From an uncultured Dehalococcoidia bacterium (lineage in GTDB: Bacteria > Chloroflexota > Dehalococcoidia > SHYD01): DNA of 34,269 nt. A program made the position numbers and the translations under genes. Shown piece after piece: positions 1,330-4,969 of the stretch (position 1 is the stretch's first letter; every line of letters starts with the position of its first letter). The stretch is taken from NCBI GenBank assembly GCA_964590215.1, contig CAZPYZ010000001.1, forward strand, positions 1 to 34,269, given 5' to 3'. Below the pieces are notes generated by a model. It ran no database searches and had not been told where the DNA came from. It saw nothing but the letters and a program-made list of their open reading frames with translations.

Positions 1330-1728
1330 TCAGGCCATGACGTCGGCGGCCGCCTTACAGCACTCGTCGTCTTGCTCGGGTGTGCCCCCACTAACACCGA
1401 CGGCACCGATCACCGCGACCTTCTCCTCGATGGGCAGGCCTCCCCCCACGGCCATGACCCGTCCTTGAGTTGAAGCTACTAGGCTGGTGAACCAACTCTC
1501 TTGGGCCATGGCGGTAAGCTGGCTGGTCGGCTGCTGGAACTGCGCGGCGGTGTAGGCCTTGTTGATAGCAACGTCCAGGCTCAAGGGGCGCGCCTTGTCC
1601 ATCCGCCCCACTGCAATCAGGCGACCACCCTCATCGACAACCGCGGCTGTAACCGCTATGCCGAGATCCTCCGCCTTGGCGTGGGCCGCCTCCACCATCT
1701 TCAGGGCTTTGTCCACCGGGATCGGCAT
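1330..1728 (-). CDS. GlcG/HbpS-like heme-binding protein (DUF336 family)
   Basis: This is the C-terminal 132 aa of the long minus ORF 1330..3315. It starts at ATG 1728-1726 with GGAGG upstream. Sequence is MPIPVDKALKMVEAAHAKAEDLGIAVTAAVVDEGGRLIAVGRMD...GGGLPI...IGAVGVSGGTPEQDDECC, typical of the family. The rest of the long ORF is antisense to amtB and is spurious. Confidence 0.8.
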   Translation of the reverse strand: MPIPVDKALKMVEAAHAKAEDLGIAVTAAVVDEGGRLIAVGRMDKARPLSLDVAINKAYTAAQFQQPTSQLTAMAQESWFTSLVASTQGRVMAVGGGLPIEEKVAVIGAVGVSGGTPEQDDECCKAAADVMA

Positions 1729-1856
1729 AGGAACCTCCTCCTCGCTGTCAGTTACGCACGGCTGCGAGTATAAGGCGCACCTGGGCATGGAGCAACGCGT
1801 CTTGCGTCGGGGCAGGTAGGCCGATAAGACGTTCGCGTCCTTCCAGGAGAGCGTCT

Positions 1857-1894
1857 GTAACGGAGCTGTAATCGAGGCGTAACAAGTTTGAAAC
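1857..1894 (+). promoter_or_regulatory. array of four pentamer direct repeats at 11-bp period (GTAAC-n6-GTAAT-n6-GTAAC-n6-GAAAC), candidate winged-helix regulator site upstream of amtB
   Basis: Read directly: GTAAC 1857-1861, GTAAT 1868-1872, GTAAC 1879-1883, GAAAC 1890-1894. The array ends 114 nt upstream of the amtB ATG. Confidence 0.5.
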
Positions 1895-2007
1895 AAACTC
1901 GCCTTACCTTTCGACATAAGGGCGCGGGCTGCCGTGCCCCAGTCTCTCAGTGCTCCCCGTAGCCTGAGCGCACCAAGGAGGCTCTCGGGGGAGGGAAAGG
2001 ATAGGAC

Positions 2008-3273
2008 ATGCCTGGGATCGACACGGGCGATACTGCATGGGTGTTGGCGTCTTCGGCTTTGGTCATGTTGATGACACCAGCGCTTGGGTTCTTTTATGGG
2101 GGGCTGGTTCGGGGGAAGAACGTCCTGGCCACCATCATGCAGAGCTTCTTCATCCTCGCGCTTATCAGCGTGCAGTGGGTGCTGTGGGGGTATAGCCTGG
2201 CCTTCGGGCCGGACATCGGTGGCGGTCTCATTGGAAGCCTGGAGTGGGTGGGCCTTGTCGGGGTTGGTGCAGAGCCCAACGCCGCGTATGCCGCCACGAT
2301 CCCCCACCAGGCCTTTGCCATCTTCCAGATGATGTTCGCGGTGATCACGCCTGCCCTCATTACCGGCGCCTTCGCCGAACGGAAACGGTTCAGGTCCTTT
2401 ATCCTCTTCACCCTGCTCTGGGCCACCCTGGTCTACGATCCCATTGCCCACTGGGTGTGGAGCTGCGGGGCGGTGGACGCAGCCGGCGTCTGCACCAGCC
2501 CCGGCTGGTTGCGGGCCCTTGGCGCGCTCGACTTCGCCGGCGGTACCGTGGTGCATATCAGTTCCGGTGTCTCCGCGCTGGTCGCCGCCTTCGTCCTGGG
2601 GCCCCGCCTGGGCTTTGGCCGGGAGGAGATGCAGTACGACGATGCCCGGATGGTAGTGCTGGGCGCGGCCCTTCTCTGGTTCGGGTGGTTCGGCTTCAAT
2701 GCTGGCAGCGCGGTGGCCTCCGGCGCGCTGGCCACCTCGGCTTTCCTGGTCACGAACACCGCCACCGGCATGGCGGCCCTCACCTGGATGACGGTGAGCT
2801 GGATCCACAAGGGGAGCCCGAGCGTCATCGGAGCTGCGGCGGGTGCCGTCGCCGGCCTGGTGGCTATCACCCCCGCGTCGGGCTTTGTCGACGCTCGTGC
2901 CGCGATTCTCATCGGCCTCGGCGCTGGGGTCTTTTGCTACCTCGGGGTGGAGCTGAAGAACCGGCTGCGAGTCGACGACGCTCTGGACGTCTGGGGCGTC
3001 CATGGGGTCGGCGGAACCTGGGGCGCTTTGGCGACCGGCCTGTTTGCCACCACCGCCGTTAACGCCGCCGGTGCGAACGGACTCTTCTTCGGCAATCCGG
3101 GCCAGTTCCTCATCCAGTTGCTGGCAGTGGCAGTGACCTGGGTCTATGCCGGCGTCATGACCTTCATCATCCTGAAAGTCGTGGAGGCTCTCATGGGTCT
3201 GCGGGTGCCCGAAGAGCAGGAGGTCACGGGCCTGGACATCGCTCAGCACGGCGAGCCAGCTTACCGGCTGTAG
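2008..3273 (+). CDS. amtB: ammonium transporter (Amt family)
   Basis: 421 aa. Contains DTAWVLASSALVMLMTPALGFFYGGLVR, FAGGTVVHISSG, LLWFGWFGFNAGS, DVWGVHGVGGTWGAL and GLDIAQHGE, all classic Amt motifs. SD GGGAGGGAAAGGA lies upstream. Confidence 0.95.
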   Translation: MPGIDTGDTAWVLASSALVMLMTPALGFFYGGLVRGKNVLATIMQSFFILALISVQWVLWGYSLAFGPDIGGGLIGSLEWVGLVGVGAEPNAAYAATIPHQAFAIFQMMFAVITPALITGAFAERKRFRSFILFTLLWATLVYDPIAHWVWSCGAVDAAGVCTSPGWLRALGALDFAGGTVVHISSGVSALVAAFVLGPRLGFGREEMQYDDARMVVLGAALLWFGWFGFNAGSAVASGALATSAFLVTNTATGMAALTWMTVSWIHKGSPSVIGAAAGAVAGLVAITPASGFVDARAAILIGLGAGVFCYLGVELKNRLRVDDALDVWGVHGVGGTWGALATGLFATTAVNAAGANGLFFGNPGQFLIQLLAVAVTWVYAGVMTFIILKVVEALMGLRVPEEQEVTGLDIAQHGEPAYRL

Positions 3274-3286
3274 CGGCCTCCAACAT

Positions 3287-3324
3287 TTAACATGCAGTTC
3301 ACTCACGCGTAACATGGTCGTAAC
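3287..3324 (+). promoter_or_regulatory. second array of four nTnAC pentamers at 11-bp period (TTAAC-n6-TTCAC-n6-GTAAC-n6-GTAAC)
   Basis: TTAAC 3287-3291, TTCAC 3298-3302, GTAAC 3309-3313, GTAAC 3320-3324. It begins 14 nt after the amtB stop and ends 56 nt upstream of the micro-ORF ATG at 3380. Period and orientation match the array at 1857-1894. Confidence 0.4.
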
Positions 3325-3379
3325 ATTCTGGCTTTAGCCTGACACTCAGTTAGTCTAAGAACTAATCAGGAGGAGCGTA

Positions 3380-3460
3380 ATGGATATCGGTCTCGTCGCT
3401 AGTCTGATTGCATTCGGTGGCCTGGTAGCCAGTTGGGTGACGCTTCCAGAGAAGCGCTAG
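3380..3460 (+). CDS. 26-aa hydrophobic micro-protein (single predicted TM helix), not in the ORF track
   Basis: The ATG at 3380 is preceded by AGGAGGAG (3368-3375). Translation is MDIGLVASLIAFGGLVASWVTLPEKR, with stop TAG at 3458-3460. An intrinsic terminator follows about 20 nt downstream. Confidence 0.55.
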   Translation: MDIGLVASLIAFGGLVASWVTLPEKR

Positions 3461-3481
3461 GTTCGTCAGCCGGAAACAGCC

Positions 3482-3510
3482 AGGCCCCTCCTAGTGAGGG
3501 GCCTGTTCTT
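3482..3510 (+). terminator. intrinsic terminator after the micro-ORF / amtB unit
   Basis: AGGCCCCTC (3482-3490), loop ctagt, GAGGGGCCT (3496-3504): a perfect 9-bp GC-rich stem, followed by GTTCTT. Confidence 0.7.
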
Positions 3511-3524
3511 ATGCCCAAAGGGCG

Positions 3525-3530
3525 TATAAT
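3525..3530 (+). promoter_or_regulatory. candidate -10 box (TATAAT) for the receiver-like gene / gap unit
   Basis: A perfect TATAAT at 3525-3530 sits 36 nt upstream of ATG 3566 and just after the terminator. I saw no convincing -35. Confidence 0.3.
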
Positions 3531-3565
3531 CAGCCCCGGTGATTTCGCTCCCAGGGGCATGTCGC

Positions 3566-3919
3566 ATGGTTGGGACCATCCTGGTCTACGCTGACGATCT
3601 GCTGAGCGGGGTTCAGGTCCGGGATACAGCAGAAAAGCTCGGCTACTCCGCCAGCACCGTGGCCTCCCTCGAGCCGCTCATCGATAAGCTGGCGTCCTCC
3701 CCCCAGATCCTCTTGGTGGACTTTGCAGCCCGCCCGGATTGGCCCGCCATCGTGGCGGCAGCCAGAGAGCAGGGCACGCCTCTCGTCGCCTTCGGCAATC
3801 ACATGGACCTGTCTAGCCGAGAACAAGCCCTTTCCGCAGGCGTCGATGCGGTCGTGGCCAGCTCACTAATAGCCACGGATCTTCGGGGAGTAATCAGGAA
3901 GTATGGCCGGGGGGAATGA
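3566..3919 (+). CDS. stand-alone CheY-like receiver-fold protein (atypical; no output domain)
   Basis: MVGTILVYADDLLSG...QILLVDFAARPDW...PLVAFGNH...GVDAVVASS shows the alternating beta/alpha pattern of a receiver domain. It has an acidic pair (DD) and a candidate acceptor Asp (LLVD), but I see no conserved Lys after beta5. I preferred ATG 3566 over GTG 3539 because AGGGG lies 8 nt upstream. Confidence 0.45.
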   Translation: MVGTILVYADDLLSGVQVRDTAEKLGYSASTVASLEPLIDKLASSPQILLVDFAARPDWPAIVAAAREQGTPLVAFGNHMDLSSREQALSAGVDAVVASSLIATDLRGVIRKYGRGE

Positions 3920-3955: not shown

Positions 3956-4969
3956 ATGGCAACTCGGATCGGCATTAACGGCTTCGGCCGCATCGGCCGG
4001 CAGGTCCTGCGTAGCATCATGGAAAACCACCAGGATGCACTGGAGGTCGTGGCAGTTAATGACCTCACCGATACCCGCACCAACGCCCACCTCTTCAAGT
4101 ACGACTCGAGCTATGGCGCCTACCCGGGCACGGTGGAGGCCCGTGAGGATGGCATGACCATCGACCGCCAGATGATCAAGGTCTTCGCGCAGCGAGACCC
4201 AGCTCAGATCCCTTGGGGCGGCGTCGGCGCGGACATCGTCGTCGAGTCCACGGGTGTGTTCACTGATGCCAAAAAGGCGTCAGCGCACCTCCAGGGCGGC
4301 GCCCGCAAGGTCATCATCTCCGCTCCCGCGCGCAACGAGGACATCACTCTCGTACTGGGCGTAAACGAGGAGCGCTACGACCCCCGTAACCACCACGTCG
4401 TGTCCAACGCCTCCTGCACCACCAACTGCATCGCTCCCATTGTGAAAGTGCTCCATGACACCTTCCGGATGTCCAGGGGGTTAATGGCAACGGTGCACTC
4501 GTACACCAACGACCAGAGGATCCTGGATCAGTTTCACGAGGACCTGCGACGAGCCCGTTCCGCGGCGATGAGCATCATTCCCACCAGCACCGGCGCAGCC
4601 CGCGCCGTGACCCTGGTTATCCCGGAGCTGCAGGGCAAGATCCACGGCATCGCCTACCGGGTGCCCACCCCGACGGTTTCCGTAGTGGACTTCGTGGCGG
4701 ACGTGGAGCGGGACGTGGATATCGACGCGGTGAACGACGCCTATCGGGAAGCGGCGGCTAAGTCCTTGAAGAGCATCCTCGAGGTCTGTGAGGAGGAGTT
4801 GGTCAGTATGGACTTCAAGGGCAACCCCCACAGCGCCATCGTCGACTCGCCCAGCACCATGGTCGTCGACAAGCGCATGGTGAAGGTGGTCGGCTGGTAC
4901 GACAACGAATGGGGATACTCCTGCCGGGTAGGGGATCTGGCCGCGTTTATGGCGAAGCAGGGGTTTTAG
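3956..4969 (+). CDS. gap: type I glyceraldehyde-3-phosphate dehydrogenase
   Basis: 337 aa. Contains [20 protein letters not shown] and [18 protein letters not shown] lies upstream. Confidence 0.97.

Follow-up and report, generated by a model that had tools for sequence, protein, structure and literature searches.

The window analysed here, the whole stretch of 34,269 nucleotides, is contig C1 of a 4.8-Mb assembly (861 contigs, 89% complete, 5.8% contamination). The initial annotation suspected that the host is not a classical actinomycete, and this is borne out: the DNA comes from an uncultured member of the class Dehalococcoidia, phylum Chloroflexota. The ammonium transporter gene amtB is separated from a divergent HbpS/GlcG-like gene (PF03928 match; ATG at 1728, minus strand) by a region that had been given as 279 bp, and which indeed spans 1729-2007. 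Within this region four pentamers with an exact 11-bp period, ending 114 nt upstream of amtB, had been claimed, and both statements agree with the plus-strand sequence. GTAAC (1857-1861), GTAAT (1868-1872), GTAAC (1879-1883) and GAAAC (1890-1894) start 11 bp apart and are separated by spacers of 6 nt each (from 5′, ggagct, cgaggc and aagttt), and the last pentamer ends 114 nt 5′ of the amtB ATG at 2008. The search pattern that had been proposed for such arrays, (nTnAC-n6)×4, would skip the array's own GAAAC site. The pattern (GWAAY-n6)×4 had a single match in the window, and no match in 100 dinucleotide-preserving shuffles. The features of the locus and the best-scoring sites of the genome are collected in Table 1. 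A 661-aa open frame (1330-3315, minus strand) runs antisense through all of amtB, in frame with the HbpS-like gene; it looks like a high-G+C artefact rather than a gene.

Table 1. Features of the amtB locus in the window, and the nine best matrix sites in the genome with the genes that follow them. C followed by a number denotes a contig of the assembly.
Feature	Position	Strand	Score or evidence
Four-pentamer array, proposed GlnR boxes a1-b1-a2-b2 of the amtB promoter	1857-1894	+	34.8 bits; present in relatives
Predicted -10 hexamer TACCTT, 10 nt 3′ of the last pentamer	1905-1910	+	predicted from spacing
amtB, ammonium transporter, 421 aa, predicted regulated gene	2008-3273	+	PF00909, E 6.5e-124
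Second array, TTAAC, TTCAC, GTAAC, GTAAC	3287-3324	+	39.8 bits; 14 nt after the amtB stop
Predicted -10 hexamer TAGCCT, 10 nt past the last pentamer of the second array	3335-3340	+	predicted
Gene for a 26-aa hydrophobic peptide, MDIGLVASLIAFGGLVASWVTLPEKR, with AGGAGG ribosome-binding site	3380-3460	+	translation; previously unannotated
Intrinsic-terminator-like hairpin (10-bp stem, 8 G-C pairs, T-rich tail), predicted end of the small-peptide transcript	3481-3505	+	
Site before the 26-aa ORF just after amtB	C1:3285		39.8 bits, best in genome
Site before a gene cut by the contig end, no family match	C199		35.8 bits, second-best
Site before amtB	C1:1855		34.8 bits
Site before glnA (PF00120)	C201		34.8 bits
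Site before a molybdopterin oxidoreductase gene (best NCBIfam model NasC; NasC-like nitrate reductase)	C178		30.3 bits
Site before an isochorismatase-like gene	C229		27.1 bits
Site before a cNMP-binding protein gene	C114		26.7 bits
Site before a NarK-family MFS transporter gene	C55		24.2 bits
Site before an ABC ATPase gene	C617		18.8 bits

The second array and the small-peptide gene that follows it have counterparts in other genomes. Arrays in the equivalent position after amtB score 40.5 bits in the closest relative (L002) and 45.2 bits in L008. Homologous small ORFs lie 3′ of amtB or glnK in seven relatives, with two tandem copies in the closest one; in five of the seven, as in the genome studied here, a clear AGGAGG or GGAGG precedes the start codon. 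The peptides share the motif AF..L[VI].W..LP, and the 26-aa peptide had no match among the Pfam and NCBIfam families. A paralogue, MDLALALSLLAFGYLISSWLALPD..., is encoded at C104:6360-6431 (+). Neither in this assembly nor in that of the closest relative, G001, was a canonical P-II/GlnK gene found (the best P-II-like match in this genome, on C85, scored 33.6 bits); since the assemblies are only 89% and 83% complete, respectively, this does not establish its absence. These two are the only genomes in which a canonical P-II match was missing, and in most of the other relatives a P-II gene lies directly beside amtB. The idea that the small peptide replaces GlnK was rejected, because in six peptide-bearing relatives a P-II gene adjoins amtB; in G017 and G011, for which the coordinates were checked, the peptide gene comes after the P-II gene. 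Further downstream in the window, between the small-peptide terminator and a GAPDH gene (3956-4969), a perfect TATAAT (3516-3521, +) is placed ahead of a 126-aa ORF (3539-3919, +) that gives a faint receiver-like match (E 0.03).

Conservation of the array was examined upstream of amtB in 30 genomes related at the level of family, order or class. The check on conservation put forward in the initial annotation turned out in its favour: arrays of four sites were present before amtB in ~22 of 27 readable upstream regions of same-class relatives. These consist of (G/T)TAAC or GAAAC words at 11-bp spacing, and they point at amtB. Arrays were also present before glnA in seven relatives and in the genome studied here (34.8-41.5 bits). 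Five more relatives have glnA a short way 3′ of amtB on a shared contig, and there the sequence upstream of glnA itself is free of arrays.

To search the genome, 18 arrays, all of them from other genomes, were combined into a 43-column matrix. Its consensus is GTAAC-n6-GTAAC-n6-GTAAC-n6-GAAAC, so that the pentamers (gTnAc/GaAAc), the 6-nt gaps and the typical number of four correspond to those of GlnR boxes. Scanning of the assembly gave eight non-overlapping sites of at least 24 bits, four of which reached at least 34 bits. The corresponding values were 0.07 and 0 for 15 column-permuted matrices, and 0 and 0 for four third-order Markov genomes. All nine best sites (Table 1) are oriented toward the downstream gene, and below them scores were ~16 bits or less, barring 11-bp-shifted re-reads of the same arrays. 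An association with nitrogen genes, which had been anticipated, was thereby recovered: the best sites precede amtB, glnA, the gene of the NasC-like nitrate reductase and that of the NarK-like transporter, that is, the transport, glutamine synthetase and nitrate/nitrite assimilation targets of a GlnR regulon. No strong array was present in this genome at gltB (-2.8 bits), nirA (8.2 bits) or the P-II-like gene (-13.3 bits), and with such low best scores these three genes were discarded as predicted targets. The gene behind the second-best site, on C199, had no Pfam or NCBIfam match, and no homologue in the 30 relatives; at this locus (C199:1-310, minus strand) the array is accompanied by a -10-like TACTCT. 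At C55:1283-2928 we observed a five-site array, the NarK-family gene and then a gene for a stand-alone 115-aa OmpR-type DNA-binding protein that has no receiver. The latter recalls NnaR, a nitrate-specific co-regulator and partner of GlnR in actinobacteria.

The sequence around the array was then considered as a promoter. No sigma-70 -35/-10 pair was detected upstream of amtB in 1729-2007, and there is no -35 hexamer. An ordinary sigma-70 promoter for amtB was rejected; the sole match in the scanned region re-reads the repeats of the second array. With the TACCTT hexamer as the predicted -10 element, transcription of amtB would start near 1917, and the array would cover roughly -60 to -23, its final site falling just 3′ of the would-be -35. 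Sites around or just 3′ of the -35 position, combined with a poor -35, are what is expected of a GlnR regulon, the -10 elements being predicted ones. A gap of exactly 10 nt between the last pentamer and a TAnnnT hexamer was found at six of the nine best sites of the genome; the remaining three fit with a shift of 1-2 nt, with a CACAAT hexamer (glnA), or with a move of one repeat unit. Inspection by eye showed the same spacing ahead of amtB in many relatives. A 10-bp distance between the last repeat and the -10 hexamer is the classical spacing of pho boxes. In the M. tuberculosis GlnR transcription activation complex (GlnR-TAC), four protomers are arranged head-to-tail on an amtB scaffold that spans -64 to +13, with the b2 site downstream of the -35 element (PMC10235972). 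By analogy, the predicted promoter geometry matches this published complex. A search of Rfam gave no match over the whole window at gathering thresholds and none over 1700-3600 at E <= 1, and a known RNA element, be it in the leader of amtB or ahead of the small ORF, was discarded on this ground. The predicted 94-nt amtB leader folds no better than its shuffles (z = -1.0).

A regulator that could bind these arrays is encoded in the same assembly. The gene at C786:1-693 codes for an OmpR-family protein of 230 aa (PF00486, 99.6 bits), which has a receiver-like N-terminus and a winged-helix Trans_reg_C domain and aligns over its full length with OmpR-family structures. Against the amtB-linked regulators of the relatives it scores 162-196 bits, and the next paralogue 96-104 bits. 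Its best PDB matches are GlnR structures (8HIH, 135 bits, 8HIG and 8HML), followed by RegX3 with 98 bits. [quoted passage not shown] Sequence identity to actinobacterial GlnR is ~40-46%. Against the NCBIfam models of MtrA and PhoB (equivalog), the C786 protein scored 115 bits (cut-off 300) and 122 bits (cut-off 296), respectively. A maximum-likelihood tree was built from 55 proteins, with 26 OmpR paralogues from this genome, a Nocardioides and a Salinispora, and with M. tuberculosis GlnR as a fragment. The Dehalococcoidia proteins and actinobacterial GlnR formed one clade with 100/100 support, on a branch of 0.95. Inside it actinobacterial GlnR was monophyletic (99/97) among an unresolved set of Dehalococcoidia lineages. 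A GlnR orthologue of the OmpR family had been named as something to look for, and the C786 protein, which falls in the GlnR clade against all 26 paralogues, is an orthologue of the characterised GlnR proteins and not of another OmpR-family member.

The residues expected to contact DNA were compared by alignment, with the residue list taken from PMC10235972. All 15 checked residues are identical (in M. tuberculosis numbering T151, K153, R171, W179, R188, T189, V192, H193, R195, R196, R198, T211, R213, N214 and Y217). The recognition-helix motif RTVDVHIRRLR is common to many OmpR paralogues; because several OmpR regulators share these residues, their identity is necessary for the same specificity and is not sufficient for it. 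Like that of GlnR, the receiver pocket is degenerate. The counterpart of Asp D50 is missing, the phospho-acceptor position being Ala in the C786 protein and D, E or A among the Dehalococcoidia homologues, so that the receiver is a more degenerate variant than that of actinobacterial GlnR. When the ORFs flanking the regulator gene in six relatives were inspected (N-terminal sequences read by eye, with no domain search), no kinase-like gene was seen; some of these ORFs resemble, by their N-termini, glnA, archaeal-type GOGAT, his genes or amtB. The Ala at the phospho-acceptor position, together with the fact that no kinase-like gene was seen by eye next to the regulator gene in the six relatives, suggests that control by the C786 regulator is probably independent of Asp phosphorylation.

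The regulator gene begins at base 1 of a 1.85-kb contig, separate from that of amtB, and its upstream side lies off the contig. Since the C786 protein is 67% identical to the copy of the closest relative, we argue that it belongs to this genome, despite the 5.8% contamination of the assembly. Its nearest homologues are from Dehalococcoidia and Tepidiformaceae (Chloroflexota). Downstream of the regulator gene lies a convergent gene that was read as a monooxygenase.

In the relatives the regulator gene is linked to the arrays. It is placed directly 5′ of the array and amtB in six relatives, and directly 5′ of glnA in six others of the same family or order. Of the 30 relatives, 22 encode the regulator (at least 160 bits); 20 of these could be evaluated, and each of the 20 has an array ahead of amtB or glnA. 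Among the eight relatives in which it was not found, four (92-99% complete) also lack the array, and three that carry arrays are only 54-71% complete. Counting only regulator-less relatives that are at least 92% complete, four of five lack the array; the exception is G019 (L013, G019:C69; 92% complete), where an array-like site of 28.7 bits precedes amtB. Since the relatives are not independent of each other, the co-occurrence of regulator and arrays is suggestive rather than statistical.

Taken with the conservation of the array, the sites at nitrogen genes and the encoded regulator of the GlnR clade, these data support the reading of the array as GlnR boxes that the initial annotation proposed. 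We consider it very likely that 1857-1894 serves as operator for an amtB promoter that depends on an activator, and that it is bound by a GlnR-type regulator of the OmpR/PhoB family, most likely the C786 protein. By analogy with the M. tuberculosis GlnR complex, four protomers would bind head-to-tail to the four 11-bp-phased pentamers, from about -60 to -23. The promoter-proximal protomer would sit just 3′ of the missing -35, 10 bp before TACCTT. There the protomers would stand in for the absent -35 contact and bring in RNA polymerase, and amtB would be transcribed from a start near 1917. The gene would be switched on when nitrogen is scarce, nitrogen limitation being the presumed signal. The same regulator would also drive glnA, the genes of the NasC-like assimilatory nitrate reductase and the NarK-like transporter, and a few others. 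Finally, the second array (3287-3324) would drive the 26-aa membrane-peptide gene, in a transcript that would end at the 3481-3505 hairpin.

The view that the phased pentamers arose by chance or from base composition, and have no function, draws on the shortness of each pentamer and on nothing more, and we give it a negligible probability. It is already refuted by the shuffles, in which the pattern never appeared, by the matrix controls (five windows of at least 30 bits were observed, against none with permuted matrices or Markov genomes), and by the position and orientation of the array, which are kept across the whole class. A different question is whether such GlnR-like operators mainly serve as repressor sites, which would block RNA polymerase when nitrogen is plentiful. 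Many regulators repress from within the spacer, which is where the proximal site lies (10 nt from the -10), and actinobacterial GlnR represses some of its targets (PMC10704036). However, with no -35 hexamer at amtB the promoter should be weak unaided, and the identical geometry activates in the solved GlnR-TAC (PMC10235972). It also activates at the pho boxes of PhoB, and the targets here belong to uptake and assimilation, the kind of genes that GlnR switches on in actinobacteria. Repression as the main role is thus unlikely.

Slightly less probable again, in our judgement, is that another OmpR-family regulator, be it PhoP/PhoB-like, MtrA-like or the 115-aa protein beside narK, binds the arrays, and that the GlnR-like protein has its targets elsewhere. 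About 12 other Trans_reg_C proteins are encoded in the genome, each in principle capable of binding direct repeats, and many paralogues carry the RTVDVHIRRLR motif. The PhoP and MtrA proteins of Streptomyces and Mycobacterium have binding sites that coincide with or overlie GlnR boxes (PMC3561978, PMC13718301). Against this, the targets are nitrogen genes and not phosphate or envelope genes. Moreover, the GlnR-like gene alone shows both physical linkage to the arrays (in 12 relatives it neighbours amtB or glnA) and co-occurrence with them, and the DNA-contact residues of the C786 protein are those that read GTAAC in the co-crystal.

The predicted system was compared with known ones. It shares most with actinobacterial GlnR (Streptomyces, Mycobacterium, Amycolatopsis, Saccharopolyspora; boxes gTnAc-n6-GaAAc): the same word, GTAAC/GAAAC, the 11-bp phasing in the order a1-b1-a2-b2, the same position in the promoter, and amtB, glnA and nitrate assimilation as core targets. 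This GlnR is also the closest solved relative of the C786 protein, which belongs to the same clade and has identical DNA-contact residues, where checked, and a likewise degenerate receiver pocket. No kinase-like gene was seen by eye beside the regulator gene in the six relatives inspected, which would fit an orphan regulator such as actinobacterial GlnR. In actinobacterial GlnR the Asp is conserved and needed for dimer stability, whereas here it is Ala (D, E or A across Dehalococcoidia). Other differences are the phylum, Chloroflexota, the regulator gene that in relatives usually adjoins amtB or glnA, the small-peptide gene among the predicted targets, and the lack of a detected canonical PII/GlnK gene in the assembly.

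The pho box of E. coli PhoB and the PHO box of Streptomyces PhoP are likewise 11-bp direct repeats that replace the -35, with the last repeat 10 bp before the -10. However, the repeat word differs, the regulon is that of phosphate, a cognate kinase and Asp phosphorylation are involved, and the C786 regulator falls in another clade. None of the top sites of this genome precedes a phosphate gene, and the score against the PhoB model is below cut-off; a PstS gene was not found in this assembly, which leaves no pho box for comparison. Actinobacterial MtrA is also an OmpR-family protein that binds similar direct repeats and modulates nitrogen genes. It differs in having a cognate kinase, MtrB, and a canonical receiver, and the C786 protein is far below the cut-off of the MtrA model. 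NtcA (CRP family, GTA-n8-TAC), Bacillus GlnR/TnrA (MerR family), NtrC and AmtR likewise control amtB and glnA by nitrogen, but have unrelated folds and bind palindromic or enhancer-type sites, not 11-bp-phased direct repeats. With Bacillus GlnR only the name is in common.

In the literature GlnR is treated as the nitrogen master regulator of Actinobacteria (PMC10235972, PMC10704036), and our search found no published report of a GlnR system in Chloroflexota. It is very probable, judging from the genome data, that the GlnR-type system, so far described only in Actinobacteria, is present in this Dehalococcoidia genome. This is an extension of a known system and not a new mechanism. A GlnR-like regulator was found in 25 of ~34 sampled members of Dehalococcoidia. 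In a sample of 300 Chloroflexota genomes, regulator scores of at least 147 bits were confined to the same class, and other classes gave 129 bits at most.

We lean, with some reserve, toward a broader view, in which the OmpR-type GlnR extends beyond actinobacteria. In Dehalococcoidia it may act as the main regulator of nitrogen assimilation, operating without the phospho-acceptor Asp and directly controlling the conserved membrane peptide of 26-35 aa whose gene follows amtB or glnK. Members of this class abound in aquifers, sediments and the deep ocean, and among them are organohalide respirers used in bioremediation. Most are uncultured. An operator that can be predicted from the sequence would allow their nitrogen regulons to be read directly from metagenomes, and it points to further candidate regulon members, the small peptide being one. 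The regulator itself offers a natural test case for a GlnR that works without the phospho-acceptor Asp. In one of the relatives (L182, G022:C3), a 333-aa ORF (2773-3774) lies just upstream of the GlnR-like gene, and its N-terminus seems to resemble that of the archaeal nitrogen repressor NrpR.
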